Below, piece after piece: positions 19,052 through 47,255 of a stretch of DNA of 64,000 bases. Both the position numbers and the translations under genes were made by a program. The DNA is from Tubulanus polymorphus (taxonomy: Eukaryota > Animalia > Nemertea). Numbering within the stretch: position 1 is the first letter of the stretch; every line of letters begins with the position of its first letter. The notes beneath the pieces are model-generated. The model was not told where the DNA came from and made no database searches. It saw only the letters and a list, made by a program, of their open reading frames with translations. The stretch spans positions 11,472,088-11,536,087 of the forward strand of contig NC_134031.1 of NCBI RefSeq assembly GCF_964204645.1, in the 5' to 3' direction.

Positions 19052-19069
19052 TTATTTAACAAAAAAATT

Positions 19070-23527: not shown

Positions 23528-23544
23528 TTATATAGTGAAAAAAA

Positions 23545-24300
23545 TTACTCTCTACATCTTATCACTAATTCATATATCACAGGAAAGTTATTTGAATCAA
23601 TTAAGTATCCATTGTGATTTCTAATTTCTAATCTAAAATTATTAAATTGAGGAATGCAGGGCTTGAAATCACACTCGGCTAAATTATAATTTATTTGAGT
23701 TCCAAATTCTTTAACATTCTTCAATGGTAAAATATTCAATAAACCAGAACTACAAATTGTATCTTTGGTTGCTTCAAATGTCTTTGTAGGGTCAATTAAA
23801 TTGCAATAAATATAAAAGTGTGTAAAGGGTATTAAGTTTGATGTAGCATCAGCATTACGTATCCTTACATCTGGGTTAATTCCTAAAATTTTAGCTAAAT
23901 GTTTTTCAACTAGAAATTGATGTTGATCTTCGTTTCCTAATTTTATTCTTACTTTATCAGAGCTATCACTTTTAATCAGTCTTAATCCAAATCCAGCAGA
24001 TGCGCCCATTTTTGAGCGTGCTCTTTTATTTTTTTTCTTGAGCTAATGTTTCTAAATTATATAATCCTGGTTTTAGATAAAGATGAAAACGTCTATTCTT
24101 ATTTCTGTCATGAATTAAAAAGACTCTATTTTCAATTCTTTTATCCGATATATTATAAAAAGAATTACATAAACTTACATTTACTAATTTTAAATCTACA
24201 CAATTCTTAAATTCCCTAATTGTACTAGTAAATTATGTGATTTATAATTTGTAAGTCTTCTAGAATCAACAAATATTCTATATTCTTTTAATTCTACCAT
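23545..24300 (-). pseudogene. Mav-1 minor capsid (penton-like) protein, frameshifted
   Basis: HFYIYCNLIDP and FNNFRLEIRNHNG match 44984-45739. Confidence 0.8.
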
Positions 24301-24302
24301 TT

Positions 24303-24849
24303 ATTTTACATATTTTATTCGAAATCTATATCATAGTGCCCTTTTTCATTTTTACCCTTATATTTGAAATAGAAATCACCTGAACATAATTCTTCTAAAT
24401 CTTCAGTTGACAATCTATGAAATCTATCTGGTAAATATGTTCTGAAATTATATTTATTTCCTTTTAATCCTTCATATTCTAAGTGGATAACTAATACATC
24501 TCCATATTTGTTAGTAAATGTATCAATATTAGTAATTAGATAATTCTTATGAATTGTTAGTACATTTAACTTCTTAAATTTATAATCTACAGATTTAGCA
24601 TTTGTGATATCTTTAATTCTATCTAGAAATGATTTGTTGTTCTCACTTGAAAAAAATTTGATATTAAAATGGAGAGTAATTAGATTAATATTTTAAGAGT
24701 AATAGGGAATGTGTTGTTCTAGATTAAAGGTTGAGAGGGCGAGTGAGTAAAAAATGAAAAATGAATTCGAGTGTGCGAGAATTTATTTTTCATTTTTTAC
24801 TCACTCGACCTCTTGACCTTTGATCTAGAACAACACATTCCATATTACT
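24303..24849. repeat. Mav-1 right TIR, including the 113-aa-family gene and a terminal fold-back palindrome 24698-24849
   Basis: Matches 1-129; AGTAATAGGGAATGTGTTGTTCTAGAT...ATCTAGAACAACACATTCCATATTACT. Confidence 0.88.
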
Positions 24850-25199
24850 ATTGATGAAAATATGACATCATTCCGACGTTCCACTTGCAACCATTGATTT
24901 ATTTTTTCCACTTATCCAAACAAAATCCTAAAAAGAATTTTGCAAATATTGATAATAGAAAAAATTTTGGGGGTATTTTCGTAAATTGGTCATTTCACCA
25001 TTTTTGAAAATATCCTGATGGATTTAGCAATTATTCACTTATAATCATATGTTCCCCTAATATCTTCCGATACTAATTCACAAAAATAACATATCTTAAT
25101 ACATGTAGCAATCATTAGTCTCTATCAATGATCAGTGTAACAGAGTTACTAATTATTTCGTTTCTTTTACGGGCTAGAGGTAAATTGGCTTTTTTCTGA

Positions 25200-26197
25200 T
25201 CTTTATACCGATAGTCCTTCATGAAGTGCCAACGACCAAAACATGGGTATGGACACATCCTAACATTGCAAGCTTGACACACATATTTGGTATCACACCT
25301 TTCGACTATGTACCTGGCACTTAGAGGCTAATGGTTTTATTAAGGGGTTAGATCTAAGGTTCTGTTGAACCTAACTTCATCTAAAGGTTCATTCATTACA
25401 TGGCGCTGTACATATCATCTATCACCAACCAATTGTTCTGCTAAGTCCTCGCGGAATTCGCGTAATGTTCGTTTATCTTCCTTTTTTCTACCCATTACAG
25501 CTTCAAAGAGAATATGTGCATTTGTGATGCATGCATCTATGATGTACCAGAATACTTTATGGGTCCATCTAAGACCCTTCATATGGCGCTTATAAGTCAC
25601 GATCTTCCGGTCAGCTAAATCAACTCAGCCCATGTATTGGTTATAAATTCCAATAATCTCTGGGCGGTTCACATGTACTTTTCTCCACACTCCATCAACT
25701 TTCACATTCCTGATGCATGTACCATTTCCTCAGCTACAGAGAGTGTGCTGAGCATTGATACAAGTTTATTATCCATCCACGTAACACAAATAATCTCATC
25801 TTGGGTCGACTTTTCAAAGTAGCAATCACCGCGTTTCATTTGCTTCACCGCAGCAGACTTTTTACTAGTTATACTATTTGGTCCGCCTCTCTTTGCCCTG
25901 AGAGTACCACATCTCTGCCAATTTCTATTCCACAATGCTAAAATCAATGCATAACTGGTGTACCAATTATCCATAAACAAGTTATAGCCCAGATCATGAC
26001 ATGGCTCACATATTTTTTTATAACAGTGCTTATTATTTTCTGACCACAAGCAACTGTTTTATCACTTTGAGCCAAGTCGAGATTTACTATGTATCCAGTT
26101 TCTGCCTCAACCAGCATATAGGCTTTTATTCCAAATCGAATAGGTTTGTTCTTTATGAAAACACGCCCAGGAGTGCGGCCTTTTGACTTTATCATGC
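25200..26197 (-). pseudogene. piggyBac transposase, C-terminal half, degenerate
   Basis: KPIRFGIKAY, LFMDNWYTS, CGTLR, WMDNKLVSMLST, RWTHKVFWYIID and a Cys-rich tail (~25230-25290); cut at 26197 by the LTR element. Confidence 0.9.
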
Positions 26198-27771: not shown

Positions 27772-28304
27772 AGTAGTATACAAAATAGCGGTTCTGGCGC
27801 AGCCCGACCCCGGTTCTGGCGCAGCCCATCCTTACCCCGGTATACCGTGTACCCTCTCAAAGCTTTATCTCCACCTAAATACCCTAAGAAGACAACCCCT
27901 GTGGACTGCGGTTCTGGCGCAGCCCATCCTTACCCCGGTGTACCATGTACCCCCTCAAAGCTTTTTCTCCACCTAAATACCCTAAGAAGACAACCCCTGT
28001 GGACCATGGAAAACACGCCAAGGGGCCGGCAAACCCCCTCCGGCCCCTATAAACCAACCGCTATAATGCACCTACAACAAAGTGTTATTTACATAGATAT
28101 TTACAGTATATACAAGTATGTGAAACGCTCTGACCTGGAATTCACCTCTTAAGCTGACGCTATCAGCGGTGCGCTGCGACCTGATTGTCACTGATTGCGA
28201 AATAGCCTAGAAAGTTCTATGCTGACGCAGAAGCCGGCAAACAACCGAGACATCGGCAGGCAACCAGAGTCATGTCCCTTGGACATGGCCAGGCCCGGCC
28301 AACA
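27772..28304. repeat. Mav-2 left TIR (533 bp) with two internal ~120-bp units
   Basis: Inverted match to 39465-40019; lacks one 22-bp sub-repeat. Confidence 0.95.
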
Positions 28305-28387
28305 TTCGGCGTGTGCCGACTTCTGACGAGGGGCCTCCCAAAAATTTCCATTTAGAGATATATATTTCTCATATATGCGAAAGCAAG

Positions 28388-29963
28388 ATGGACAGCGCGG
28401 TAAAAAGTCTGACCGATTTACTTCGAGACGGGCAGATTACTGTCGTAACATATGCCGATGCCATCAACCAGTTGACCCGCAGACCGACGCCTGCTCCGAG
28501 AAAGCCAAAACCCGCCCCCAGAAAACCCAAGTACAAGGTAGAAAACATTATACCGGACGATGATCCGATTTGGGATGAGATTCTACCGGAGCCAGAACCC
28601 GCGTTTCATAGGGCCCCGTTTGCTATCCAAAATTATCTGAGGGCCTGGGTTTTGAGACCAGCCACCGATATGACTGATCCGTCGATATTCTTGCGCGAAC
28701 AGCGGAACAATGTAAGGGAGAAGTTAGTCGAGGAGATCATTGACCTTAAGGGTGTAAAATTCTCCATTGCTCTGCGGGTTTCGTTGAGGAAGGAGAAGAA
28801 CGACGGCACCTATGCGCACGTCGAGCCGCCCTTCTGGTCGAAGCAATACGTTCTATCGAAGGCGGCTAACATAAATGAGGAGTTTGGTAAAGCTGAAGCT
28901 AGGGTTATACAGAGTATTGAGAATTATATGAGAGAAGGTTATATCGACCTCCCCGTCGCAGTCAAGAGAAGACACGCCGTCGTAAATGTCAAAAATAGAG
29001 ATGATCACTGCCTTAAGTGGTCAATACTGGCCTCGAAATACCCCGTAGAGAGAGACCCCCAGAGGCCATCGAAGTATGCGAATCACTGGGACCAGCTTGA
29101 ATTTACAGGCATCGATTCACCAACACCATTGAGTCAGATTCCTATGGTCGAACGACAAAACGGACTGGCAATCAACGTGTTCGGGTATGACAAAGGCGTG
29201 TACCCACTGCATATCAGCGATGGCCCGGCCCCCATTCCTAGAATTAACTTGCTTCTCGTAGAGAGCGGTGAGAAACAGCATTACACATGGATCAAAGACC
29301 TCAATCGCCTGTTGTTCACCCAGAGTAAGTTTGAAGGGAGGAAACACTTCTGCGAGCGGTGCCTTCATTGTTTCACCAGAGAAGATCTCCTGGAGAGGCA
29401 CAGGTCAGATTGTCGAGGAGTCAACGGACGTCCGATGCGTACCAGTATGCCCTCGGAGGAGGACAGAGTGCTGCGGTTCACCAATCATCACAAGCAGCTC
29501 AAGATTCCGTTCGTCATCTATGCCGACTTCGAAGCCATTACAACCAAATTCGAGGGGCCCGGAAGGAACCCGAACCAGAAAGGTAGCGAAAAGACTCAAC
29601 TTCACGAGGCGTGCGGGTTCTCGTACGTGGTAGTGAGAAGCGACGGTAAACACGAACCACCCGTCCTTTATAGAGGCCAAGACGCTGCGGCGGTATTTCT
29701 TCAGCACCTCCAAGGGGAAGAGGAGAAAATAAAGGGCGTGCTCGCCCATCCCGCGCCTATGGTAACTACTCGGGAGGAGCAAACGTCATTCGAGGAAGCG
29801 GAAAATTGCTACGTATGCGACAAACCACTCTATGAGGATCGGGTCAGGGATCACGATCACATAACGGGTGACTACCGGGGCCCGGCCCACAACGAGTGCA
29901 ATCTCAAGTTGCGACTGTCCGCGAAATACACGCCTATATCGGTCATGTTTCACAACCTCCGCG
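28388..29963 (+). pseudogene. pPolB: Mav-2 pPolB N-terminal half (terminal-protein region, Exo I, endonuclease VII-like insert); polymerase domain missing
   Basis: NVKNRDDHCLKWSIL, CERCL, YADFEA, VRDHDHITGDYRGPAHNECNL; homology stops at FHNLR (Exo II start). Confidence 0.92.
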
Positions 29964-30253
29964 TGGTCGCAGGCATTGAACGATACAGTTTGCAGTTCAT
30001 GGCTCTGTCCGGCTTCGCCTGGGAGGAAATAAATCTGGAAGCGATTTGGAAGGAGATGTTCACCGACAACCGCGTAAACTGGGGTCGAATAGTCACGTGA
30101 ATCGCATTCGCTAGCTATCTGGCTAAGCATTTCTTCCGAGTCACCGATAACCTCGATTACGCCGAAGAGATCGCATTTAGAACGAGGGAGTTCTTTAACG
30201 ACAATCTCGCATACTGGGTTATCGAGCAAGGTGGCTGGTCAGAATTACCATGA
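29964..30253 (+). pseudogene. Bcl-2-family homologue, 5'-truncated, fused in frame to pPolB, one internal TGA (30098-30100)
   Basis: BH1 EMFTDNRVNWGRIVT*IAFASYL; same frame continues 50 codons with BH2 AYWVIEQGGWSELP*. Confidence 0.85.
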
Positions 30254-30293
30254 GACGGAAAGCGAGTTTTTTCTGGCTTACAGTATAGCTACT

Positions 30294-31538
30294 ATGTCTG
30301 CATACGGTAAACACTTGAACCCTTCGAGACAGATTCGAAGACCGCTAGGTGTCAAGGCGGATCGACACCACGAGGTTATTACCCACAACCCTTCGTCCGT
30401 GTCACCGGGGGAAACCCTTTACGTAAGGATACCAAAACTGCAGGTGAACACGCTGGTACCCGGAAGCTTGAAACTCACGTTCGACCTCAGCAAAGAGGGT
30501 CCGGCTAATAACTTCTTCGTGAACAACATTTCGAGGAACCTAATGGCCAGAATCGTTGACAAACTGGGTGGTGAAATCTTATCGGATTTGAACTACAGCT
30601 TCGTCTTCCAGACCTACAAAGATCTGTGGCTTACGGACAAAAGGCGAAGTAACATGATTCTGGATGGAATCGGCAACGAGAACTTGAGGAAACTCAGATC
30701 GGATGCAGAAGACGCCTTGAAAACCAACACCAAGGAAACGATGATCAAGTCGGTGTTTAAGAACAGGTACGCCATACCCATTGATTTCGAACTGTACACG
30801 GACCACGGTCCTTTCTATCCGTTCGCAATCAACGAGGACTTTGTTAGGGAGATCACTTTCAACGAAATCAAGTTCACTGTAAACGGGAGTGCGGAGGCAT
30901 GGGGATACTCCGTGAAAAATATAGCCCTCGAATACGACACCGTGCATTCGGCGGAGCTCGCCAGACAGATCGAAGCCGACCTGTCCGCCGGGGTAAGCTT
31001 CTTGTACGACTACGTCACGTACTTCAGGAGTCAATCCACGGGAACCTCGACAATTCTGAACGTAAACGTTAACGTTCCCCGAAGGTCGATGAAGGGCCTG
31101 TTGATATTCTTTCAAGAAGAGTTTGACAACGGGCAGTACGATTCCGAATCCACCTCGTTTCAGAACCCTAACATCAAGAACGTCGACGTCACGATCGAAG
31201 GAATATCTCACAAAGTGTACAAGCAAGGACTGAAACCTTACCAACAATGGGAAGAGTGCAGAAGATTTCTGATGCCAGAATCGGCCAAAGAAACCGACGA
31301 GTCGCACATAGACGAGTTCTCGTTCTTCGTCGACGACAAATACGCATTGTGGATCGATCTCAGAAGCACAGACGACAACTCGCTTCACGGATCTGGTCTA
31401 AGGTTGGTCAACACAAAGGACGGCGTTCAGTTAGCCATCACCCGTACCAGCACAATGGAGTACACGATGTTCATTTACGTCGTAGCCGACGCCCAAGTAA
31501 ACATCCAGAACAACCAATTAAAGGCGATTCTGTTCTAA
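30294..31538 (+). CDS. Mav-2 major capsid protein (double jelly-roll expected)
   Basis: Full-length similarity to Mav-3 415-aa ORF (THNPS, YKDLWLT, PRRS.KG.LIFF, LW.D.R.T.DNSLHGSG); size and position next to ATPase fit Maverick MCP; probable start is ATG 30294. Confidence 0.85.
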   Translation: MSAYGKHLNPSRQIRRPLGVKADRHHEVITHNPSSVSPGETLYVRIPKLQVNTLVPGSLKLTFDLSKEGPANNFFVNNISRNLMARIVDKLGGEILSDLNYSFVFQTYKDLWLTDKRRSNMILDGIGNENLRKLRSDAEDALKTNTKETMIKSVFKNRYAIPIDFELYTDHGPFYPFAINEDFVREITFNEIKFTVNGSAEAWGYSVKNIALEYDTVHSAELARQIEADLSAGVSFLYDYVTYFRSQSTGTSTILNVNVNVPRRSMKGLLIFFQEEFDNGQYDSESTSFQNPNIKNVDVTIEGISHKVYKQGLKPYQQWEECRRFLMPESAKETDESHIDEFSFFVDDKYALWIDLRSTDDNSLHGSGLRLVNTKDGVQLAITRTSTMEYTMFIYVVADAQVNIQNNQLKAILF

Positions 31539-31550
31539 TGTATAGCGGAG

Positions 31551-32165
31551 ATGGATAGGCTTTGTTTACAGCCCCCGTTCAACATGATTGTGTCGGGGCA
31601 AACGAACTGCGGAAAAACGCACTACGTCCTCGACCTCCTACAATCTGTCTATCGCGGCAAATTCCACAATATAGTGATTTTCTGCCCGACTTTCCTCGAG
31701 AACACCACCTACGATAGATCGTTTGTGATGAAGGACCCCAATACCTTCGTCATGAACCCGGGTTCGGTGTTAAACGACCTAGACGGTTTGCTTTCCACGT
31801 GCACCAAAGTATACGGCGATCCTCATTGTCAAACTGTGTTTCTTATAGACGACTGTGCCAACTTGAAGGATACTAAAACCAAGTCGTCCGAATTGACGAA
31901 ACTCGCGTTCTCGGGCCGTCATCTGAATATCTCAGTGTGGGTGCTCACTCAAAAATACAACGCCGTTGTGAAAGATTTCCGAGAAAACCTGAGAATGTTA
32001 GTCCTGTACCACCAAAAAGACGAGGATGGTTTAAAGGATGCTCTGCGTGAAAACAACATCGTCCCGAAAAACAAAAGGGAACGTGTGATCGCAGATCTCT
32101 CTGCTAGGAATCGGGCCCGTCTCGTCATGCGCCTCGAGTATCCATTCGCCTACGGGGTATTCTAA
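31551..32165 (+). CDS. Mav-2 A32/FtsK-like packaging ATPase
   Basis: GQTNCGKT, FLIDD, SGRH, LTQ. Confidence 0.95.
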   Translation: MDRLCLQPPFNMIVSGQTNCGKTHYVLDLLQSVYRGKFHNIVIFCPTFLENTTYDRSFVMKDPNTFVMNPGSVLNDLDGLLSTCTKVYGDPHCQTVFLIDDCANLKDTKTKSSELTKLAFSGRHLNISVWVLTQKYNAVVKDFRENLRMLVLYHQKDEDGLKDALRENNIVPKNKRERVIADLSARNRARLVMRLEYPFAYGVF

Positions 32166-32192
32166 ATTTTGGACGACTAACATATAGCGAAC

Positions 32193-32690
32193 ATGAACGA
32201 AGTCTACGACGAACTACTGAGTGACATTGGGTTGGATGTAGAATCACCCGAAGACGACGAGTCGGAAGGGCGCAGGCAGCTACTTGTCGGGCTTTCTCAG
32301 AGCGGGTTGCTTGCAAAAATAGGTATCAAGAAATCCGAAGGTCAACTTAAGAAGATGAACTCGAAAGCGCTCGAACGGGTGCGGACGGAGTACGAAAACC
32401 GTTATTCCGCCGCGGTTTCCGACAGTCTGATCAACAGCATACTCTATTCCAAGCTCTGCAAGTGGTTCAGACCTAACGTAGACACAGAACAGCTAAACAA
32501 GGAGTTGACTGAAAACTTTGTTATCACCGCCGAGATGAAAAACCAGCTCGGCCATCTGGGTAGGATTCTGAAGACTGCCATACTCGCAATCGCGAACGTT
32601 GCGGTAATCACCGGGAAGAATATGGCAGATTCTGAGGAAAGTGACTTGTCCACTTGTCCGCAAGTAACTAGTCCACTTGCCGATAAGTAA
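32193..32690 (+). CDS. Conserved Maverick protein, homologue of Mav-3 200-aa ORF
   Basis: YSKLC and downstream L..N.(F/Y).(V/I)..E(M/L) pattern shared. Confidence 0.75.
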   Translation: MNEVYDELLSDIGLDVESPEDDESEGRRQLLVGLSQSGLLAKIGIKKSEGQLKKMNSKALERVRTEYENRYSAAVSDSLINSILYSKLCKWFRPNVDTEQLNKELTENFVITAEMKNQLGHLGRILKTAILAIANVAVITGKNMADSEESDLSTCPQVTSPLADK

Positions 32691-32737
32691 ATTTCCCACT
32701 TTCCCGTAAGTCGTATTTTCCTCTCTTGCATATAGGG

Positions 32738-33055
32738 ATGGAACAAGTGGAACAAGTGACGACTAACCCGCATAAACAAAAGTCCCCTGGTCGAGTCGCA
32801 TGGGGCAAAAAGCTTGCCGAAATAAGTAGGCAGCAGCGAGCCTCGAAGAAAACGGCTGCCCCGATTGTCGGTTCCGACGACGAAAACAGAACCCAGTCAA
32901 AACACCTGCAAATGTGGATCGCGATAGGCGGGTTGTTAGTGGGCCTCGGAGCTCTATACTATCAGAGAATGGCGCTAAACCAAACCCCGAAACCCGAAGA
33001 AAACACGGAACCAACACCCGAACCTTTAACTTGTCGCCTTGTGGAGATGACCTAA
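32738..33055 (+). CDS. Small basic single-TM protein, homologue of Mav-3 122-aa ORF
   Basis: RVAWGKKLAEISR plus a TM segment. Confidence 0.75.
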   Translation: MEQVEQVTTNPHKQKSPGRVAWGKKLAEISRQQRASKKTAAPIVGSDDENRTQSKHLQMWIAIGGLLVGLGALYYQRMALNQTPKPEENTEPTPEPLTCRLVEMT

Positions 33056-33080
33056 ATTTTCTGTAGATAGATATAGCACG

Positions 33081-33320
33081 ATGGCAACGAATCCAGACTA
33101 TCGAACAATCGCAAACGTACTTTATCACTCGGCCGTTCTAAGCGGACTGACCGTAGGGTACGCGATGCTCGGGAAGAAAATGCTACGCTTCGATGTGGGT
33201 GATCCCTCCAAGGCTGACCTTTCCGAAGCTATGAAACTCACGGTTGCGGTTTCTTTAGCAACCATCTCCAAGGATTACCTGGAGAAGTCGAAATTCGAAA
33301 AATTCTGCCCCCAAATATAG
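33081..33320 (+). CDS. Small hydrophobic protein, homologue of Mav-3 73-aa ORF
   Basis: TVGY.M..KK and KLT.AV.L...DYLEK shared. Confidence 0.8.
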   Translation: MATNPDYRTIANVLYHSAVLSGLTVGYAMLGKKMLRFDVGDPSKADLSEAMKLTVAVSLATISKDYLEKSKFEKFCPQI

Positions 33321-33330
33321 GGACCTAATC

Positions 33331-33740
33331 ATGGCTACTGCAGCGGTTATCATCGGCGGCGCCATAGCGAACGCTGTGGCATTTACCGGAGGCCAAGCAA
33401 TCTATAGAGCGGTACAAGGCGACTCCGGAGCTGCCCAAGAACGAGAGAGGCTATGGAGCGATTGAACGCGGCAATGGTGACCTGGAACGAGAAACGGCAA
33501 AAGACACTGGACTACCTCAACAGGGAGCTGCAAAAAGAGATGCAGACAAAATCCGACTTTTCGGACGTCGATGAGGCCCTTAGGCTTTACAACAGTACCA
33601 GGAACGACAAATTATCTTTGAGGCAGCGGCCGGTGCTAGGCGATTTCTATTCCCCTTCAGACGACCAATTGAACAGTGAGTACGCCTTTATATTAGGCAG
33701 TACAATTCTGACCGGCGTCATCGCGTACAAATATCTGTAA
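33331..33740 (+). pseudogene. Homologue of Mav-3 140-aa ORF, frameshifted near 33450
   Basis: AIANAVAFTGG from ATG 33331; C-terminal part in ORF 33453-33740. Confidence 0.8.
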
Positions 33741-33743
33741 GTT

Positions 33744-34262
33744 ATGGACGACCCCTACGGTATATTGCCTAAGGAGTTTGATCTTGAAAGGCTCGAGAGA
33801 GAACTCGAAGACTACGTAAACCCTCCTCTTCGGTTGCAGATCAAAAAGGTTCCGAAACCGAAACAAGTCCACATCCCTCCGGCGAATTACGACTATCGAA
33901 CCTACTTGGAAGACCACATAAATCGCGGTTTGGACGGTGGGTTTCTCGACATTCCTACATGCGCGATGATCAGATATTGCTTCGCCGACGTCTATCAACT
34001 CTTCCTCGAAAAGTTCCCTCGTCGGAAAAACTTCCTTTCCTACGGATTCTTCTTAAACCGAATCCTCGAGCTACATGGAAAGCCGGAACGTAAGTTCGGG
34101 AAAGAACCAGTGTCGAAATTTGCTTTGGCACAAAACTGGAATTTGTGGGAAGCGTACGAGGAGTGGATCCAAAAACAAATGGACGAGTTCGATGTTTCCG
34201 ATTCTTGCAGAAATTCCTGGCTTAATTATAGACGATGGCGGAATTCGACGTTGATCCGATAG
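33744..34262 (+). CDS. VLTF3 (poxvirus A2/NCLDV late transcription factor)-like protein, C-terminal domain only
   Basis: FPRRKNFLSYGFFLNRILELHG...QNWNLW resembles the VLTF3 signature RKNFLSYxYxLxKxxELLG...QDxIW; recognised from motif only. Confidence 0.6.
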   Translation: MDDPYGILPKEFDLERLERELEDYVNPPLRLQIKKVPKPKQVHIPPANYDYRTYLEDHINRGLDGGFLDIPTCAMIRYCFADVYQLFLEKFPRRKNFLSYGFFLNRILELHGKPERKFGKEPVSKFALAQNWNLWEAYEEWIQKQMDEFDVSDSCRNSWLNYRRWRNSTLIR

Positions 34263-35343
34263 ACTGGGACGTGGAGCCTCAAGATGACGCCGTAGGCGAG
34301 CTCATTCCCATGGAAAACCTGGGAGAAAAAGACGGCATCATCGACTCGCTGCTCGGTAAATTCGGCGGTAACCTGGACGACATGGAGCGAGCCCTGATGC
34401 GCCTGCAACTACAAAAACAAGACGATACCTGGTTCTTCCAGACGGAACTGAACGGTGATCCAGTTCGGGTGAAACTTACCGGTAGGAGCGGTCAAGTACT
34501 CGCGCATAGTACCATCTCGAAAGCGAAAGGGGCTCTGAGTTTTTCCATGCTCTGGGCCCGGACAGACCGGTGAGAATGGAACGAGACCCGTTGGAACCAT
34601 CTATCGTGGAGCGCTTGTCGGTGGATAACGAGTTGAGTTTGCAGCAGGAAATAGAGGACATCGTCAATGACGACAGGGCTCCGCTGAGACCAGAAGACAG
34701 ACGTGAACTCCGGGGGGTAGCTACTACTTTGGTTTCTACGTCCAGCAAAATTAAGTCAGCAGCTGTAAACGTGGAATGGGCCCAACGAGAACTAGAAAAG
34801 GCTCAGAAAGAGCGCGATGACGCGGTGTCCGAACAAGACATCCGATACTGGGACGACGAAGTAGAAAGGTTCGAAGCTCAGGAAGCAATATACAGGCGGA
34901 CCTACGAGGCTCTACGGCAGGGGGAGACTTCTCAGATCGAGAGGTTGAAGAGGCTTCTGAAGAACGAAGATAATCGGCCCCTCGGCGTAAAGATCCGGGA
35001 GTTGTTCAAACAGGAAGGGATTACGTTGGTGAGCGTTGTCACGGCCATCGGGCTCGCAATCGCGAACGGGCTCAAAAGCGTAGTAACACCCAGTCCGCCG
35101 GTTGGACCGGGAAAAGAACCCAAGTCCAGGATTCGAGAAGCTCTGAAAAAGATCGCGGCGTTTCTTAAATATCTCGCAGGGAAAGGAGCTGCCGCGTTGC
35201 CGGGAATGATCGGAACGGTGGTTAGCTTCCTGTTGAGGAAAGCCGGAGAAGCAGTCGGATTCGTGGCCGAGCACTTGGTGTTGTTGTTTATCGCTGCAGT
35301 CGGTCTGTCTTTCCAAGTCCTGAGCAAGAAATTCTCGCGTTAG
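34235..35343 (+). pseudogene. Coiled-coil protein with hydrophobic C-terminus, homologue of Mav-3 490-aa ORF, frameshifted near 34540-34570
   Basis: LFKQEGIT..S..TA, AAALPG.I...V.F.L..AG, FVAEHL shared. Confidence 0.82.
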
Positions 35344-35354
35344 ATATAGGAAGG

Positions 35355-36074
35355 ATGTTAGTCATCCACTGTTACGGTAAGGATCCGACCGTGCGTCTAA
35401 AAACGCATCTCGACACGGGTGGCTTCAAAACTGTAGCCTTAAGACGGGCTGTCATTTCTCTGGCTTACTTCAACGTTTCCGACAAACTGAACAACCACAG
35501 GTTTCGCTACATGACCGGAGAAAGGGTGGACGAGCACCAACAAAATGTGTTCAACTTGATTATCAGGAATGGACTTTACACGGTTGAGAGTTTGAACGAC
35601 GAAATTCAGCGAGTCATAACCCGAAACGGTCACAAACCGGGCTTCATTAACATAGCCTACGTGGAGGCGAGGGGGCGCATCGAACTCAATGTCAAAAAAC
35701 CGTACCGAGTGCTCTTCAGCGGCTCCATCACCGATCTGTTGGGAGTCCCGGAAAGATATTACCCAAACGTCGAAGGTAAAGAGGTTAGTGTAAGGGGTAC
35801 GAAAGAATGTAGGTTTACCAGGCATACGGAATACCGCGTAACGTGCAATCTCGTTGACGAATCGAGAAACTTCCTAAACGGGGTGCCCTCGGACCTGATC
35901 GCCATTTTACATCCGAAAGCAGGTCAATACGGCGACTCATTCGAGTACGTTTACGGGGTACCGATACCAATTAAGGAAGGCGGCTTCGCCGACGTAGTGG
36001 TCAAGGTTTTCAATCAGGACATGGAGGAGATTCGATTCCAGGAACCGCTCCAAATTTTGCTCGCATTAGAATAG
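35355..36074 (+). CDS. Mav-2 minor capsid (penton-like) protein
   Basis: G.Y..E.L..EI, LLG and CNLVD motifs shared with 44984-45739. Confidence 0.7.
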   Translation: MLVIHCYGKDPTVRLKTHLDTGGFKTVALRRAVISLAYFNVSDKLNNHRFRYMTGERVDEHQQNVFNLIIRNGLYTVESLNDEIQRVITRNGHKPGFINIAYVEARGRIELNVKKPYRVLFSGSITDLLGVPERYYPNVEGKEVSVRGTKECRFTRHTEYRVTCNLVDESRNFLNGVPSDLIAILHPKAGQYGDSFEYVYGVPIPIKEGGFADVVVKVFNQDMEEIRFQEPLQILLALE

Positions 36075-36076
36075 AG

Positions 36077-36535
36077 ATGAACTTGTACAGGGGATTAGGG
36101 AAAACACAGTCCACCACAAAACCTGTGATAACCGTTTGGGCCGAGGAAAAAGGACCCCTTGGTGAGGGCTCTTACGAATTTTCGTACGGTGATGGGTCGC
36201 GATCCCAGTACGCGGGCTACACGATGATGTGTCCGGGGAGAGTGCTAAAAATGGGCCTCTCCGGTGGCGACTTGACAACTAATACCACAGTAGTGTTGAC
36301 CGTCAACAGGGTGGAAAAAGGAGAAATCACGAAAGAGGCTCGGCTTTTACAGGGCCCGATCAAACCCCAAGGTAAAGGAGTCTTCCAAGCCGCGGTCAAA
36401 ACGTTCTCTCCACCAGTCGAATTGGCCGAGGGCGACGTCATCAATTTCAAGTCGTCGAGATCGCCCGCTACTCGAGCAATAGCTACGATAGCTTCACTCC
36501 TCATCGAGCTCGACATTTTCCCGCATAGTATATAG
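36077..36535 (+). CDS. Hypothetical beta-rich protein, no counterpart in Mav-3
   Basis: Tightly packed 152-aa ORF with AATAG just upstream. Confidence 0.6.
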   Translation: MNLYRGLGKTQSTTKPVITVWAEEKGPLGEGSYEFSYGDGSRSQYAGYTMMCPGRVLKMGLSGGDLTTNTTVVLTVNRVEKGEITKEARLLQGPIKPQGKGVFQAAVKTFSPPVELAEGDVINFKSSRSPATRAIATIASLLIELDIFPHSI

Positions 36536-36536
36536 C

Positions 36537-37137
36537 ATGGATAGCGACACTAAACTTTACCCAATGGTTCCAACTGAGCCTAGTGCTCCAACTGAAGATG
36601 CGTCGAACTTCCGACTGCAGAAAATATGCGAAGTCCAGAAAACAGGGACAATCCCGCGCTGCGCTCTACAAGAAGTATAAAAGGGCGGTGAAAACCATAG
36701 ATGGATTTGACGCGGCTTTCGTGACGGCTAGCATAGCAGTCGCGGCTACGGGAGCCGCTGGCGTGCTTACAAACATAATCACCATCCCCGTTGCGACCGT
36801 CCTAGGCGTCTTAGGCGTGTCTGGGAAGATAGTCGGTCGGAAGCTTCTGATCAAGGCTAAAAAGCACGACGAAATTCGAGTGTTAGCCTCTTCCAAACTA
36901 AGCACCGTGTCAGATCTTGTATCGAGGGCAATAAGTGATGGAGTTGTTTCGGATGACGAGTTCAAGCTGATTCTAGCCGAACAGAGGAACTATCAGACTT
37001 TGAAGCAGGATATCAAGTCACAGGCTCGTAAAAAACACGGGTCGATCACGATCGACGAGGCTACAAAAAGGGACCTCATCAGGCAGGGCAGGGAGCAGGC
37101 CAGGGCTTCCATCATAAAAAAGCTGGATGGAGGTTAA
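36537..37137 (+). pseudogene. Hydrophobic-hairpin protein, homologue of Mav-3 144-aa ORF; frameshift near 36645
   Basis: MDSDTKLYP..SAP..NFRLQKI from ATG 36537, then KKYK plus hydrophobic hairpin in ORF 36583-37137. Confidence 0.7.
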
Positions 37138-37146
37138 CGTTAGAGT

Positions 37147-37908
37147 TTAACAGAGACACGTCACCCCCGGATTACTACCATTGAGAGCTGCTCCCGATTT
37201 AGCTAGTTGGTCCGCCATCTCATTCCCGTGTACCCCCTGGTGACCCCTGACGTATTTGAAAGATACGGAGACTCGGTTATTCAGACCATCCAGTTGTGTC
37301 CAGAGATCGCGGTTTTTGACGTTTTTCCAGCACCTGGCTTTCCACGTCTTGATCCAATCAGTGATACCGTTTATAACGTATTTCGAGTCGGTGAAGATTT
37401 GCAAGGAGTTAATACCAAGCTGGATGGCCTGATTGAGAGCCACGACGACAGCGGTTAATTCACCTCTGTTGTTGGTAGGTGGATAGACGACGGCACAGGT
37501 GTTTAAGGGACTGTCTGGTCCCCAGTAGACTCCGTAGCCCGCACGAGCCTCGTCTGCACCGTTTCTCAGGCACGAGCCGTCTGTATACACTTCGGGTATA
37601 TGCTCCGGATAGATGTCGAATACGCCAAACGCCTTAGAGCTACAGGGGAATTTTTCTGGGTCGGAGGTGGCGTGCGCGAATATTCCTAAGTAGTGGCATT
37701 TTATGAACGCCTTCGAGTTTTTATGGTTGAGGGATTCGAAAGCGAGATCGAGATAATGGCTGTTTTCGAATTTCGAGATGGCTACTTCAACGATGTTTTC
37801 GTCGGGAGAAGTGATAAGGAAGTAGACCTTCAGTGCATGAAGCCAGTGGTATACGGTGGACGGTACTTGAAAAGTGAGCAATCGACGGTGACCCCATTTA
37901 TGTAGCGT
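37147..37908 (-). CDS. RNase H1 (cellular/metazoan type), probably the C-terminal part of an RT-RNase H polyprotein
   Basis: YTDGS, TNNRGEL, FTDSKYVI..ITDWIKTWK..W, VKNRDLW, VRGH.G..GNEMADQLAK: all D-E-D-D residues and the His loop present. Confidence 0.95.
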   Translation of the reverse strand, partial: TLHKWGHRRLLTFQVPSTVYHWLHALKVYFLITSPDENIVEVAISKFENSHYLDLAFESLNHKNSKAFIKCHYLGIFAHATSDPEKFPCSSKAFGVFDIYPEHIPEVYTDGSCLRNGADEARAGYGVYWGPDSPLNTCAVVYPPTNNRGELTAVVVALNQAIQLGINSLQIFTDSKYVINGITDWIKTWKARCWKNVKNRDLWTQLDGLNNRVSVSFKYVRGHQGVHGNEMADQLAKSGAALNGSNPGVTCLC

Positions 37909-39391
37909 TTACAAAGACACTGTCGATTAGCTGCAAGCAATTATCAGACAGGTCGTTGATCATGAGGTCATGGTAATCAGCTCTCAGCATATAGTCTATA
38001 GCGATATGAACCTTTGTCCCGCTTTGTATATCGGCGTTATCTATGTTTGCGAGTCGTTGCCTGAATTTTGTGAGGAGAATTTCACCCACCCCTTCCTGTC
38101 CCTTGGGACTGAAAATATTGCCTAGATACGTTATTCTGTCCAAATCGGTGAGGGTCGCGGTGTCTTTGCCCTCTATCTCGTTTTTGAATGGCTCAATTCG
38201 TCCGCGTCTAACGCTCAGGGAAACGCATTTGTCCGGCCTGAGTTCAAGGTTCATTTCCTTGGCTTTTTTGTTAAACGCGTACGTTATATCTAAGTGGGCT
38301 TTTGCCGATTTTGTTTCCAGCGTTGTGTCATCTGCATAGGCTAGGGATGTCCCGGTTGACAGTATTCTAACGAGGGGTTCTACGCACAAGATGAAAATTA
38401 GGGGGCTAAGAGGGCAACCCTGAAAGACCCCTCGTTTGTAGGGGATATCGACCGTGCCCCAAGGACCTTTGAATTTGCTAGAAATTTGAGAATACAGCGC
38501 CGTTAGGTACCTATACCAGCTTGCGGGAATTCCAATGACAGATAGCGTTTCACTTACCAGTTCGTGTTCGATTGAACCGAATGCATTTTTAAGGTCAAAT
38601 AAAGTCACAAATGAGTCATTTTCAGTTTTTTCGGCTTCGATGATTTTAGTCTCTAATAATTCAGAATGTTCCAGTGTCCCGTGAAGGCCCGACACGAATC
38701 CTTTTTGTACGGCAGTGTCGATGAATCCGTTCCTAATGACGTGGCGTTCTATGCGTTTCGCCATTATCCGATGAAGGAGCCTCGAGATCACGCTTGTAAC
38801 CGCAATCGGACGATAGTTAGCAGGATCCCGGCGGTCCCCTTTCTTGAATAGAAGCGTCACAACGGTGCACCACGCGGAGATTTTCGAAGGTGGCCTTCCC
38901 GTATCTAGTATGTTGTTGTAAAATCGCGCGAGTCGATGGGTGTGCTGACGGAGATGTCCGTATTTGATCCTGTCTAGACCTGGAGCGGACTTTGGGTTGC
39001 TGCTCCTCAAGGCTTTTTCGATTTCAGCTGCGGTTATCGGTGACATATCGAACGGGAACGCAACGTTCTTGACGGGTGGCTTAGGAAAAGGACCGGTCTG
39101 CTTACTAGAATACAGGTCCGTGAAGTATTCCTTCACCCGTCGTTTAGTCGGAAATGCATCCTCCTGCGTTTGATTGCTCGGGGAACCCGTAATAATCTGC
39201 TTGGCTGTTGTAAAGAACCGATTTGCCCTGTTGAGTTTGCTGATTTTTCTCACTAGGCCGAAGAATTCTTTCGAGCTGGCTTCATTCTTGAACAGCGTCT
39301 TCCGTAATTCACATTTCCGCTGTTTCAGGGTTTTCGGCAACCCGGCTTTAATGTCACTCACCAGGTTTTGATAGATCAGATCTGTGTCCAT
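37898..39391 (-). CDS. Non-LTR-type reverse transcriptase (RLE-clade-like), no endonuclease
   Basis: KSAPGLD, KKGD...NYRPI, QKGF..G..EH, FDLKNAFGSI.H, GVFQGCPLSPLIF, AYADD, KC, YLG; first in-frame ATG at 39391. Confidence 0.96.
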   Translation of the reverse strand: MDTDLIYQNLVSDIKAGLPKTLKQRKCELRKTLFKNEASSKEFFGLVRKISKLNRANRFFTTAKQIITGSPSNQTQEDAFPTKRRVKEYFTDLYSSKQTGPFPKPPVKNVAFPFDMSPITAAEIEKALRSSNPKSAPGLDRIKYGHLRQHTHRLARFYNNILDTGRPPSKISAWCTVVTLLFKKGDRRDPANYRPIAVTSVISRLLHRIMAKRIERHVIRNGFIDTAVQKGFVSGLHGTLEHSELLETKIIEAEKTENDSFVTLFDLKNAFGSIEHELVSETLSVIGIPASWYRYLTALYSQISSKFKGPWGTVDIPYKRGVFQGCPLSPLIFILCVEPLVRILSTGTSLAYADDTTLETKSAKAHLDITYAFNKKAKEMNLELRPDKCVSLSVRRGRIEPFKNEIEGKDTATLTDLDRITYLGNIFSPKGQEGVGEILLTKFRQRLANIDNADIQSGTKVHIAIDYMLRADYHDLMINDLSDNCLQLIDSVFVNAT

Positions 39392-39464
39392 TTCTGACCA
39401 CGCAGAATCTATATCCACCTTGGTGAGTGAACCAGGACTCTCACGAGACGCGCTTCACCTGGTG

Positions 39465-40019
39465 TGTTGGCCGGGCCTGGCCATGTCCAAGGGACATGAC
39501 TCTGGTTGCCTGCCGATGTCTCGGTTGTTTGCCGGCTTCTGCGTCAGCATAGAACTTTCTAGGCTATTTCGCAATCAGTGACAATCAGGTCGCAGCGCAC
39601 CGCTGATAGCGTCAGCTTAAGAGGTGAATTCCAGGTCAGAGCGTTTCACATACTTGTATATACTGTAAATATCTATGTAAATAACACTTTGTTGTAGGTG
39701 CATTATAGCGGTTGGTTTATAGGGGCCGGAGGGGGTTTGCCGGCCCCTTGGCGTGTTTTCCATGGTCCACAGGGGTTGTCTTCTTAGGGTATTTAGGTGG
39801 AGAAAAAGCTTTGAGGGGGTACACGGTACACCGGGGTAAGGATAGGCTGCGCCAGAACCGGGGTCGGGCTGCGCAAGAACCGCGGTCCACAGGGGTTGTC
39901 TTCTTAGGGTATTTAGGTGGAGATAAAGCTTTGAGAGGGTACACGGTATACCGGGGTAAGGATGGGCTGCGCCAGAACCGGGGTCGGGCTGCGCCAGAAC
40001 CGCTATTTTGTATACTACT
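39465..40019. repeat. Mav-2 right TIR (555 bp)
   Basis: Inverted match to 27772-28304. Confidence 0.95.
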
Positions 40020-40219: not shown

Positions 40220-40680
40220 AGTAATAGGGGTAATAGGCTTTCAAGCCAAAGGTCGAACGGTCGAGCTCGTAAAAAATGAAAAACATAAAAATAATTACAA
40301 TTTCTACTTGAATTACTCGCGAAACTCATAAAAATGAAAAATAAATTCTCACACGCTCGAATTTATTTTTCATTTTTATGATTTTCACTCCTAATTCAAG
40401 TAGAAATTGTAATTATTTTTATGTTTTTCATTTTTACTCACCCGCCCGTTCAACCTTTAGCTTGAAAGCCTATTACCCCTATTACTCTTAAAATATTCAT
40501 ATATATGAATAACATTTAAATCATTGAACTTCTAAAATCAATTTTAATAAAAAATATAGTATTAAAATGGAAGCAAATAAGTACTACTGCCCAACATGTA
40601 ATATCGATATAGATAAGTCCCAAAAAGCAAGACACAATAAAACTAAAACACATTTAGAGAATAAATTGAAACTAGAGTAT
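40220..40680. repeat. Mav-3 left TIR; 40220-40486 is an imperfect fold-back palindrome
   Basis: Essentially identical inverted copy at 58279-58739. Confidence 0.97.
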
Positions 40681-43600
40681 AAAGATGATATATTAGAAAC
40701 TAAATTAGATGAATTAAAGAATGAAAAAGAAACATACAAATGTGATATATGTAATCAATCATTCAGTGATAAAAGATATTATAAAGAACATTTAAAATCT
40801 ATAAGTCATATTAGAAATAAGAATAATGATATTATAGGTGAAGATTATTTTGATAATGATAACGATAAGAAACAAAGCGCAATTAAAAGAATAAAAAATA
40901 AATTAAACAATAAAAGACCATACATGGAAGATGTAAGAAATTATATTAATTCATTAGATAATAAAAAAGATATAGAGATAACCGAAGCATTTAAAAGTGA
41001 TATTGGTCCAGCAGCTATCGAGTTTAAATTTCATAAAGGAAAAACAAGAAAATAAAAAACATTTAGAAAATATGAAAGAAATAATAAAAATAATTACAAA
41101 CGTAGAATATCCAAAAATTAGTATATCAGTTAAAGTAAAGTTTATAAAATCTGAAGATAAACCAATATATAATATAAATTCTCATTCACAACATATTATA
41201 TCTAAACAACATATAGATGATAAATTAAATAAATGTTATAATGAAATAAAAACTAAAACAGAAGAGAAATATTTTGAAGGATCTGGTTTAATATTTGATG
41301 AGATAATATTTATAACTTTACATGTTTATAACACAAAATATAATAAGTTAAGTAAATCAAAACCAATTGATGAAAATAATTTATCATATTATAAAGATGA
41401 TAGTATAAATGGAACAAGTTATATTAAACTACCATTTAAAACTAATGGTGTAATAAATATACAAAATTTTGATAATAAATGTTTTATATGGGCTATAATA
41501 AGTTGTTTACACCCAGTTGAAGATTATAAACAACATAGTTTTAGATTAACTCATTATAAACAATTTGAAAATAATTATAAGATAGATAAGTATCCTGTTA
41601 GAATTAAAAATATTCCAAAAATAGAAAGAGATAATAATATAAAGATAAATGTATTTGATTTAATCAAATTACCAAATACAAAAGGAAATAATATTAAACA
41701 TTATACATTAGAACCTTTATACCTATCAAAAGATTATGATTCACATGATGTTATAGATATACTATATTATGAGAATCATTATATGTGGATTAAACAAATA
41801 GATTTATTTTTTAGAACAGAAAGTGATCACCATAATAAAATATATCTATGTAGAAAATGTTTACATAAATTTAGTAATGAAAGTACATTATTAAATCATA
41901 AACAACTATGTGATAATCATGATTATTGTAAATTAGTTTTACCAAATGAAAAGGATAAAATATTAGAATTCAAAAAATATGATTACAAAAATAAAGTACC
42001 ATTTGTAATATATGGAGATTTTGAATCATTAAATAAAGAATTAACAGATAAAGATAGAAAAGATATATATTATAAAAGAAAGAAATTAAATTCTAATGAA
42101 AGTGATTATTCAGATGAACCACCAATAACAAATACTATTAAAAAGATTCATCAATCAGCTGCAGCTTTCGGGTTATATATTAAATCTGATTATCCAGAAC
42201 TAATTGAAAGTGAATATTATAATTATAGAAATGAAAATGTTATCAATCATTTTTGTGACTTATTAATTGAATATGAAATAAGATTTAGTAAATTATTGAA
42301 TACAAATATAGAAATTATAATGACAGAAGAAGATAAAGAAGTATTTGCGTTTGCAGATAAATGTTATTATTGTGAAAAGATATTTAATTATAAAGATAAA
42401 AAAGTAAGAGACCATGATCATTTGAATGGAAAGTTTAGAGGCGCTGCACATGAGAATTGTAACTTACAAGCTAAGAAAATTAACTTTATACCAGTTATAT
42501 TTCATAATCTATCAGGATATGATGCACATTTATTTATCAAACAGCTATGTTATAAAATAGAAGAAATTAATAATGAAATAGAAAGATTAAATTCAAATAG
42601 ATCAAAAGATAAAATACCAACTTATAAATCTAAAATGTTAGCTAAAACATCTGAGAATTATATATCATTCCAAATTGGTTGTCTAAGATTTATAGATTCA
42701 TATAGATTTTTAAGTAGTTCATTAGATAACTTATCAAAATCATTAGTTGATGATGAATTAAAGATATTAAAAGAATATTACCCAAATAATGATGATTTTA
42801 AATTAATGAGATATAAAGGAGCAATTCCATATTCTTTCTATAAAAATCATAATGATTTTAAAATAACTGAATTATTGAAAGAACAATTCTATGATGAATT
42901 AAAAAATGAATATGTTAAAGATGAAGTATATAATAGAACATTGAATATTTGGAATCATTTCAAAATAGAAAATCACGGGCAATTAGTAGATTTATATTTA
43001 AAATCAGATGTATTATTATTAACTGATATATTCGAAAGGTTTAGAGATGTAAACCTAAAATATTTTAACATTGATCCTTGTCATTGTTATTCATCACCAG
43101 GATTAACATGGGATTGTGGTTTAAAATTTACAGATATAAAAATGGATTTGTTAACAAATATAGATCAATTATTATTATTTGAAAAATCTATAAGAGGAGG
43201 TGTTTCAGGTGTATTGGGTGATAGATATTTCAATGTAAATGATAATCCTGGATATAAATTATTATACATAGATGCAAATAATCTTTATGGTAGGGCAATG
43301 ATGGAACCACAACCTTATGGGATGTTTGAAATAACTGAAGTTTTACAAATTGATAAATTTGATTGGAAGAAAAGAATCCTAGATATTGCAGATGATTCAG
43401 ATATTGGTTACTTCTTCGTTGTAGATTTAGAATACCCTGAAAATATCAAATTCAAATCTAGAAATCTAGCATATTGTCCCGAACATAAAACTGTTAAACA
43501 TGAAGAATTATCAAATTATCAAAAAAGAATTAAACCCGATAATCATATTCATACAGAAAAGTTAATGGAACCTCAAGAAGATAAATATAATTATGTAGTA

Positions 43601-44596
43601 CATTATAGAATGTTGAAGTTTTATTTGAGACAAGGAATGATATTAAAAAAAGTACATAGATATATTTCATTCAGTCAATCTAAATGGTTAGAAAAATATA
43701 TAGATTTTGATACTACACAGAGAACTAAATCTAAAACTGATTTTGAAAAAGATTTTTTTAAGTTAATGAATAATGCATTCTATGGAAAAACTTGTGAAAA
43801 CATAAGAAATAGAAATGATATTGAGTTAGTTAGTAATGGTAAAAGGATAAGGTATTTACAATCATATCCTAAGTTTATAGGTAACAGAATATTTGATGAA
43901 AATTTAGCAGCAGTTAATATGAGAAGAACATCAATGAAATTTAATAAACCAATTTATGTTGGAGCTGCAGATTTAGAAATTTCAAAGCTATTGATGTATG
44001 AATTCTATTATAATGTATTACAACCTCATTTTGGAGAAAAACATATAGAAATCTTATATTTTGATACTGACAGTTACATATTAAAGATAAAAACTGATAA
44101 CATAACAGATGATTTAAAAACATTAAAACACCATTTTGATTTTAGTAATTATCCAAAAAATCATGAATTGTTTAGCAATGATAATAAAAAAGTTCCTGGG
44201 AAGTTTAAGGATGAATTAGGTGGTGAAGAAATGATAGAGTTCATTGGTATTAGATCTAAAATGTATTCATATAAAACTAAAGAACATGAAGCTAAAAAGT
44301 TAAAAGGAATAACCAAAAGCGTTGTTGAAAAGAATATTCATTTTAAAGATTACATCAATTGTATATTTAATGAAGAAGTTAGAAAACATAAGATGAAATG
44401 TTTAAGATCTGAAGATCATGAAATGTATATTGAAGAGATAGAGAAGATAAGTCTAAACCCATTTGATGATAAAAGATATATTTTAGATGATGGAATCCAC
44501 ACAGTCGCCTATGGTTGCAATTTAGATGAATATATAAAATTCAAAAGAGAAGAAACAAAAGAAAATGAGATTATGAAAAGGATTCTAGCGTGTTAA
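40567..44596 (+). CDS. pPolB: Mav-3 protein-primed DNA polymerase B with N-terminal C2H2 fingers and endonuclease VII-like insert; 4-bp deletion after 41046 splits it into ORFs 40567-41055 and 40997-44596
   Basis: YGDFES, FHNLSGYD, YLKSDV, YIDANNLYG, KLMNNAFYGK, YFDTDS; Mav-1 and Mav-4 read KGKTLEENKK through the break. Confidence 0.97.
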
Positions 44597-44624
44597 TCAA
44601 TTTCAATAAAAATTTGTATAATAA

Positions 44625-44966
44625 ATGGAGAGTAAACAAGTACACAGTGAATTCTTAGAAAGAATTAAAGATATAACAAATGTAAAATCTGTAGATTATA
44701 AATTCAAAAAGTTAACAGAATTAACAATCCATAAGAAATATCTAATTACAAATATTGTTACAGTTACTAATAACTATGGAGATAAATTAGTAATTCATTT
44801 AGAATATGAAGGATTAAAAGGAAATAAATATAAATTCAGAACTTATTTACCAGATAGATTTCATAGATTATCAAGTGAAGATCTAGAAGAATTATATTCT
44901 GGTGATTTCTATTTCATATATAAAGGTAAGAATGAAAAAGGGCACCATGAAATAGATTTCGAATAA
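44625..44966 (+). CDS. Hypothetical 113-aa protein (possible OB-fold)
   Basis: Intact ORF with TAAATG start; conserved in the Mav-1 TIR. Confidence 0.7.
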   Translation: MESKQVHSEFLERIKDITNVKSVDYKFKKLTELTIHKKYLITNIVTVTNNYGDKLVIHLEYEGLKGNKYKFRTYLPDRFHRLSSEDLEELYSGDFYFIYKGKNEKGHHEIDFE

Positions 44967-44983
44967 GAAAATATGTAAAATAA

Positions 44984-45739: not shown

Positions 45740-45755
45740 TTTTTCACCTATATAA

Positions 45756-46337: not shown

Positions 46338-46361
46338 ATGCATAATTTTTTTGCTAAATAA

Positions 46362-46784: not shown

Positions 46785-46803
46785 TAATTTTTATTCTAAA
46801 TAA

Positions 46804-47238: not shown

Positions 47239-47255
47239 TTTTTTTAATTATATAA

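Follow-up and report, generated by a model that had tools for sequence, protein, structure and literature searches.

A ribbon-less VLTF3-like protein and a gene-by-gene TTC-N10-TATA(G/C) box in a Maverick of the nemertean Tubulanus polymorphus

The Maverick element Mav-2 of Tubulanus polymorphus contains an intact open reading frame of 172 aa (positions 33744-34262, + strand, of the 64,000-nucleotide stretch of DNA that was analysed, referred to below as the window) that derives from the late transcription factor VLTF3 and has neither the zinc ribbon nor the HTH-like insert of that family. Because nearly all other genes of the element stand behind one precise box, TTC-N10-TATA(G/C), the protein likely steers a borrowed polymerase onto the element's genes. 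That it activates the element's own genes, whether with a helper's polymerase or with that of the host, we regard as probable; as the best explanation of how, we tentatively favour an adaptor that redirects the polymerase of a helper large DNA virus to the element's own box. Under this proposal, an intact, vertically inherited Maverick gene would encode a product that folds as one TFIIB/cyclin-like domain and steers an RNA polymerase borrowed from the helper, which would probably be part of the late machinery of a large DNA virus that co-infects the cell. Its target would be the TTC-N10-TATA(G/C) box, acting as a promoter that starts transcription at TATA. The RKNFLSY loop of the protein would still dock on the promoter complex, an N-terminal module would take the ribbon's place as hook, and the VLTF3-like gene, being boxless, would be produced by another route, either earlier or by read-through.

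Mav-2 extends from 27772 to 40019, has 50% GC, and is bounded by TIRs of about 540 bp (27772-28304 and 39465-40019) with the ends AGTAGT/ACTACT and a 6-bp target duplication, AACGGC. The copy is decayed: its truncated pPolB, represented by the N-terminal part, is fused through an internal deletion to a broken Bcl-2-like remnant (28388-30247, + strand; remnant, 29930-30247), and it has no integrase. This copy is thus a deleted derivative; an integrase is present in the relative L004. A Bcl-2 family gene directly before the capsid gene was also observed in the lineage (L004 2448-2861; Pfam E=2e-18). Mav-2 further encodes an A32-type packaging ATPase (31551-32165; Pox_A32 E=1e-17) and two genes without a Pfam match, which by size and position we take to be the major capsid gene (30294-31538) and the minor capsid gene (35355-36074); their products are 43% and 25% identical, respectively, to those of the neighbouring Maverick. 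Both genes adjoining the VLTF3-like reading frame are interrupted in Mav-2, whereas the frame itself is open. A scan of the Mav-2 ORFs and of 13 ORFs of L004 and L006 turned up nothing TBP-, VLTF2- or polymerase-like. The AT-rich Mavericks of the window, whose capsid protein is 43% identical to that of Mav-2, yielded no VLTF3-like gene in 916 six-frame segments.

The preliminary description of this DNA had linked the reading frame to VLTF3, and several searches bore this out. The motifs RKNFLSYGFFLNRILELHG and QNWNLW are both present in it. Pfam family PF04947 matched aa 76-116 (E=2.8e-4) at 21.1 bits, which is below the gathering cut-off of 25 bits; this cut-off was passed by 5 of 12 ribbon-less relatives (P0013 and P0015 were left out as repeat artefacts). 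Against our own profile, built from 31 full-length VLTF3s of viral contigs, the protein scored 21.2 bits, compared with a maximum of 6.2 for 2000 shuffles, and hhalign matched its family to VLTF3 with 93.8% across 69 columns. The similarity is thus greater than chance would give, although the Pfam cut-off was missed. Moreover, 29 of 30 Atlas matches were PF04947 clusters, the top three being 145-182 aa long; searches of PDB sequences with the protein gave nothing significant. The sequence score leans heavily on the RKNFLSY motif: when the motif was masked, the HMM score dropped to -2.2, and hhalign retained as its sole match the upstream Y-x-R helix (P=0.016). Support for the kinship beyond this motif was supplied by the fold search, in which the predicted model matched models of VLTF3; the outcome that the preliminary description had named as its refutation, a likeness in profile and structure confined to the short motif, therefore did not arise. 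We file the protein as VLTF3-derived, a relationship that sequence profiles and predicted structure indicate to be real, and not as a canonical VLTF3 member.

The gene had also been described as a fragment, which is contradicted by its boundaries and by its relatives. An in-frame stop lies 3 nt upstream of the ATG, and the N-terminus M[DE]DP[YF]G is common to five relatives (P0001-P0004 and the L004 protein). In the capsid-ATPase cassettes of L004/L005 and L006 the gene holds the equivalent slot, flanked by the corresponding two neighbours; the putative capsid protein is 75% identical to that of the window in L004/L005 and 60% in L006. Differences from the L004 gene amount to 0.39, 0.36 and 0.61 at codon positions 1, 2 and 3, and length class, slot and motif are kept among relatives down to about 30% identity. 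Since the gene is kept in L004, L005 and L006 and missing from the AT-rich Mavericks of the window, its sequence distribution marks it as lineage-specific yet conserved. A 22-nt deletion within the gene, at window position 33899, was observed in a copy in X2 and X3 contigs, which come from one sample. In a tree of 48 rows and 84 columns, 14 ribbon-less proteins formed a single clade (support 100/99) on a long branch. The phylogeny that the preliminary description had proposed for finding the donor virus family named none, in a tree in which long branches meet and no row is identified as a pox-, asfar- or iridovirus. No further Mavericks were recovered when viral contigs were scanned with the protein and the ribbon-less alignment, or when an alignment of capsid proteins was run against viral and prokaryote contigs.

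The AlphaFold model of the protein is compact and confident (pLDDT 89), and it divides the gene, on the + strand throughout, into distinct parts. The N-terminal module (aa 1-28; 33744-33827), comprising MDDPYG and a helix at 14-25, is conserved and replaces the zinc ribbon; it is followed by a variable linker (aa 29-47; 33828-33884; pLDDT 61-72) and by a single predicted cyclin-box fold of the TFIIB/cyclin/Rb-like kind (aa 48-148; 33885-34187; pLDDT 95-98 for aa 51-150). Identity to four close relatives is 55% in the module and 56% in the core, compared with 30% in the linker, and for the module we infer a docking role. The RKNFLSY motif (34023-34043) forms the loop joining helices 2 and 3 of the fold; among 71 sequences, N96, F97, S99 and Y100 are invariant and R94 is nearly so. 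In TFIIB, the corresponding loop of the cyclin fold contacts DNA downstream of the TATA box, and the ribbon docks Pol II. An extra C-terminal helix (aa 153-169; 34200-34250) is encoded where the gene overlaps the box and the start codon of the next gene. As the preliminary description had observed, the N-terminal zinc ribbon is absent: the protein contains no CxxC pair, which 30 of 31 full-length VLTF3 representatives have.

The best fold match was protein M4QPM5 of Tetraselmis viridis virus S1 (TvV-S1; E 1e-3). Named VLTF3 or late-transactivator models ranked 2-6, with probabilities of 0.99-1.0, weak E-values, and rmsd 1.7-3.7 over 76-86 columns. In a structure comparison, 24 of the best 25 rows were cyclin-fold chains (TFIIB, Brf1, cyclin, Rb and Orc6, some of which we have presumed to be so); a Pol II initiation-complex chain came first, and the best cyclin-fold match had Z 6.5 and rmsd 3.9 over 103 aligned positions. 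Because these Z values are middling, and because the scores of TFIIB, cyclins and Rb pocket domains are tied, lying less than 1 Z unit apart, the term TFIIB-like refers to the layout of ribbon, linker and core and not to the score. Like the first cyclin repeat of TFIIB and Brf1, the Mav-2 protein has a small N-terminal module, a flexible linker and a five-helix cyclin box; unlike them, it has one repeat instead of two and no B-ribbon, and identity is 7-14%.

With the VLTF3/vaccinia A2 family (PF04947, NCVOG0262) the Mav-2 protein shares the RKNFLSY loop, the C-terminal helices, the upstream Y-x-R helix and the predicted cyclin fold, but it measures 172 aa compared with 260-549 aa for the 31 full-length canonical representatives, is without the zinc ribbon and an HTH-like insert of about 60 aa, and has a new N-terminal module. 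The spacing from helix to motif is 106-110 aa in 62 canonical VLTF3s, compared with 45 aa in the Mav-2 protein and 43-52 aa in this protein and 15 of 16 short relatives (the exception, P0004, was mis-parsed); these values place the loss of about 60 aa at the central insert. The model of a canonical VLTF3 (L087 5698-6381, mc0fd1c17b298) consists of a zinc ribbon, a linker and a cyclin-box fold (about 61-77 and 146-224), and a three-helix domain at 80-140 interrupts the cyclin fold. This insert matches Myb/GARP and other HTH domains (Z 4.4-4.9) and also three-helix domains that do not bind DNA (up to Z 5.3). In Foldseek, the first seven rows for the canonical model were Pol II initiation-complex chains, presumably TFIIB, with weak values (E 0.065-0.27). 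The cyclin fold of the Mav-2 protein and the HTH-like nature of the lost central part are thus predicted, and the model suggests that the protein keeps the cyclin fold alone behind a new conserved N-terminal module. Other short VLTF3 forms (P0014, P0016 and P0017; 153-182 aa) have also lost the central insert and retain a Cys-rich N-terminus, which is replaced in the ribbon-less clade of Mav-2.

The box was found at gene starts with a rigid architecture. TATAG lies within 25 nt upstream of 8 of 12 starts in the window, 7 of 11 in L004 and 5 of 12 in L006, whereas among other ATGs the respective counts are 2 of 95, 6 of 147 and 4 of 139. TATA(G/C) anchors 25 of 35 starts, the ATG following after 1-15 nt, and relative to it T, T and C occupy -13, -12 and -11 in 22, 21 and 20 of the 25 cases. 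When the spacer was varied, 25 sites were found at N=10 and 0-4 at every other length. The strict TTC-N10-TATA(G/C) box occurs eight times in 28301-37200, every time before an ATG, compared with a Markov expectation of 0.12 on average and 2 at most in 300 runs. All eight are on the + strand: a TTC-N10-TATAG box at 30271-30288 precedes the putative major capsid gene; boxes at 31528-31545, 32718-32735 and 33059-33076 precede the packaging ATPase and small genes at 32738 and 33081; that at 33303-33320 precedes a frameshifted gene (33331-33740), the immediate upstream neighbour of the VLTF3-like gene; that at 34214-34231 lies inside the VLTF3-like coding sequence and precedes the gene at 34235; and those at 35332-35349 and 36518-36535 precede the putative minor capsid gene and ATG 36537, which is upstream of a 179-aa ORF at 36598. 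Moreover, a cross-validated matrix, trained each time on the other elements, detected the box at 32 of 33 non-VLTF3 genes (window, 11/11; L004, 10/10; L006, 10/11; L007, 1/1) and at 0 of 4 VLTF3-like genes. Box scores in the window exceeded those of all 91 control ATGs, for PolB weakly. These counts, from which L005 was omitted as nearly identical to L004, are not independent events, because the elements are related and three gene starts were re-chosen once the box had been seen.

From this arrangement we infer a promoter function for the box, its TATA being the start site. It is not a TATA box of Pol II, since the 1-15 nt to the ATG are too short for a -25 to -30 geometry and start sites would land inside ORFs; nor does it fit a splice acceptor, given the rigid spacer and the 5 of 25 start-linked sites that read TATAC and have no AG. 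A CAATTGA near 33665, resembling the early motif AAAATTGA, was set aside as codon-constrained. A relaxed match faces outward in each TIR of Mav-2 (28125, - strand; 39644, + strand). Among ORF starts of giant-virus loci, unsorted for asfar- and poxviruses, 7 of 1089 have the strict box. In the window and L004 the VLTF3-like gene abuts the upstream gene, and read-through may occur. Between the same two genes an A-run/T-run hairpin, possibly a terminator, was observed in L006 (5020-5050) and L007 (14-32), and the window and L004 lack it; L006 also has a weaker box-like site (score 8.1) 28 nt upstream of the VLTF3-like gene. Within 28300-37900 there are two AATAAA sequences, neither of which follows a cassette gene.

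The two-part layout of the box is shared with post-replicative promoters of pox- and asfarviruses, as far as these are set out in the accessible parts of the cited papers. The late p72 promoter of ASFV has TATTT at -15 to -11 and TATATA at -1 to +5 (PMC5294985), and ASFV late genes have an initiator TATA and short 5' UTRs (PMC7458399). Vaccinia late promoters consist of a T-rich core, a gap of 5-7 bp and TAAAT(G/A) (PMC5294985), and intermediate promoters of an AT-rich core, a 12-bp spacer and TAAA, the initiator being read by the viral polymerase (PMC12917281). The spacing of the Mav-2 box differs from that of ASFV p72 by about 2 nt, and the likeness to it is one of resemblance only. By analogy, this large-DNA-virus-like geometry lends independent support to an adaptor and a virophage-like lifestyle. 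Satellites are described that copy the promoters of their helpers: mavirus and EMALEs (10.1101/2025.10.09.676808), a pacmanvirus transpoviron (PMC11788076), and, as a further comparison, the PLVs inside entomopoxvirus occlusion bodies, in the available text of which the word 'promoter' is absent (PMC11296320). Like them, Mav-2 has gene-by-gene motifs in a post-replicative geometry of large DNA viruses and no RNA polymerase; unlike them, it has its own VLTF3-like gene, and its box is identical to no described helper promoter.

A different motif was found in the AT-rich, VLTF3-less Maverick at 40220-58739, of which a related copy lies at about 10000-25500. Here TAAATG occurs at 13 of 17 starts, compared with 44 of 684 other ATGs (P=3e-12); a T-run precedes 7 of the 13 start sites, compared with 2 of the 44 others; PolB and integrase are without it. 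At nine of the 13 the sequence is also AATAAATG, and these sites could serve as poly(A) signals as well. Stop-start packing was rejected as the cause, since by ORF coordinates 1 of the 13 sites fits. In its TAAATG and T-run anatomy this Maverick resembles vaccinia late promoters, and by that analogy it is possibly a poxvirus-dependent satellite. The co-variation of VLTF3 with box type was seen across 3-4 related elements that bear VLTF3 and a single lineage that does not. More broadly, a lineage of animal Mavericks might be satellites of pox- or asfar-type large DNA viruses, some having copied the helper's late promoter TAAATG outright and others combining a private TTC-N10-TATAG with a TFIIB-like core, stolen and given a new hook, by which the helper polymerase is re-targeted; we consider this wider idea speculative and on balance rather unlikely.

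For VLTF3 itself, obvious homologs beyond the NCLDV were lacking in one listing (PMC3493329); the accessible texts report it in a number of small viruses. Homologs are described in coral polintoviruses (PMC11131425, citing Krupovic and Koonin 2016), in Tetraselmis PLVs (PMC9356565), in further PLV clusters (10.64898/2026.06.19.733378) and in midsize eukaryotic viruses, according to a figure legend (PMC8502044); like the Mav-2 gene, those of polintoviruses and PLVs reside in small, RNAP-less integrating viruses (PMC11131425, PMC4517135, PMC9356565). The comparison with coral and Tetraselmis VLTF3s is one of descriptions that give no domain anatomy or promoter analysis, and the supplements of PMC11131425 may hold the ribbon-less family. 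The presence of VLTF3 in polintoviruses was therefore already known; what appears new, from sequence and models, is the anatomy and the box. In the text of mainly non-subscription papers we found no report of VLTF3 as a TFIIB/cyclin fold, of Polinton promoter motifs, or of a strict gene-by-gene TTC-N10-TATA(G/C) box.

The preliminary description had assumed that VLTF3 implies a virus-encoded RNA polymerase, and here the literature, so far as its accessible text extends, points the other way. TsV-N1 assembles in the nucleus, encodes VLTF3 and is RNAP-less (PMC4517135); mriyaviruses (PMC11253617) and ariadnaviruses (10.64898/2026.08.29.747986) keep VLTF3 without an RNA polymerase; most phycodnaviruses have lost the polymerase, and VLTF3 was counted in 45 NCLDV genomes compared with RNAP beta in 36 (PMC3493329). 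Conversely, mininucleoviruses have polymerase subunits and are described without VLTF3 (PMC6960288). TsV-N1 and TvV-S1, the source of our best fold match, are both described as autonomous, and for related PLVs awakening by a giant virus is described (10.1101/2025.10.09.676808). Because autonomous and RNAP-less nuclear viruses keep VLTF3, these cases weigh against an adaptor and make host Pol II a real alternative partner. The protein would then be the element's own late-gene factor: made first, it would bind the box in the nucleus and, together with host RNA polymerase II, activate the capsid cassette without a helper. The TFIIB-like fold, a PLV protein as top fold match, the integrase in the lineage (L004) and a VLTF3-like gene that alone is boxless would all suit such a factor. 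The ribbon, with which TFIIB docks Pol II, is missing, however; a box 1-15 nt from the ATG matches no TATA geometry of Pol II and would leave the mRNAs almost without leaders; cassette genes end without AATAAA; the Mav-2 ORFs scanned include no TBP-like gene; and the sister Maverick has a start-proximal TAAATG with VLTF3 wholly absent. We hold a factor of this kind to be possible and only narrowly less likely than the adaptor. The adaptor faces objections of its own, in that a helper with already matching promoters needs none and the model suggests that the most obvious DNA reader went with the HTH-like insert.

The remaining alternatives do not involve activation through the box. Whereas the adaptor and virophage-like half of the preliminary proposal gained from the promoter-like boxes, its other half, a decoy, fared less well. 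In a decoy the ribbon-less core would fill the VLTF3 site of the helper's late complex and throttle the helper as a dominant negative. Ribbon-less TFIIB cores inhibit transcription in vitro, the invariant motif loop is kept while both predicted effector modules are lost, and a boxless gene could keep the protein dose low; yet, if helper machinery reads the boxes, general inhibition would shut down the capsid genes of the element itself, the N-terminal module that a bare decoy would not need is conserved like the core, and the presence of VLTF3 is in itself no evidence of a decoy, being already published in polintoviruses and RNAP-less viruses. Since Mav-2 would rely on that machinery for its own genes too, we judge a decoy unlikely. 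It is more improbable still that the cyclin fold has been re-used on the host, through binding of CDK, Rb/E2F or TBP, with no relation to the box. The tie of cyclins and Rb pockets with TFIIB and the Bcl-2 homolog, a second host-modulating gene of the lineage, are consistent with it, but the conserved residues are the VLTF3-specific ones common to giant-virus proteins, the canonical VLTF3 model shows the same fold, and the missing box would be left unexplained. Finally, decay of the Mav-2 copy, the 22-nt deletion (in contigs of two runs) and the related AT-rich Mavericks without the gene would be expected of a degraded fragment or neutral passenger taken from a giant virus. Conservation of length class, slot and motif among divergent relatives, the greater variability of third codon positions and the compact, confident model have already largely refuted this, and we regard it as very improbable.

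Animal Polintons/Mavericks may be autonomous nuclear viruses or may depend on a helper, and the replication strategy of polintoviruses is called a key unknown in the accessible text of PMC11131425. An 18-bp strict box together with a single candidate factor makes helper dependence testable by a small reporter. If the wider satellite idea is true, the private box and the re-hooked core would form a one-protein specificity switch, comparable to a viral sigma-factor swap. For VLTF3, a marker of nearly all giant viruses, the models further suggest a build of ribbon, cyclin fold and inserted HTH, of which the Mav-2 protein would be a natural minimal version marking the core. Elsewhere in the window, degenerate TTAGGG-like telomeric or subtelomeric repeats occupy 63096-64000 and, with the types of element present, point to an animal host; a LINE-type reverse transcriptase has inserted in the right arm of Mav-2 (37898-39391, - strand).
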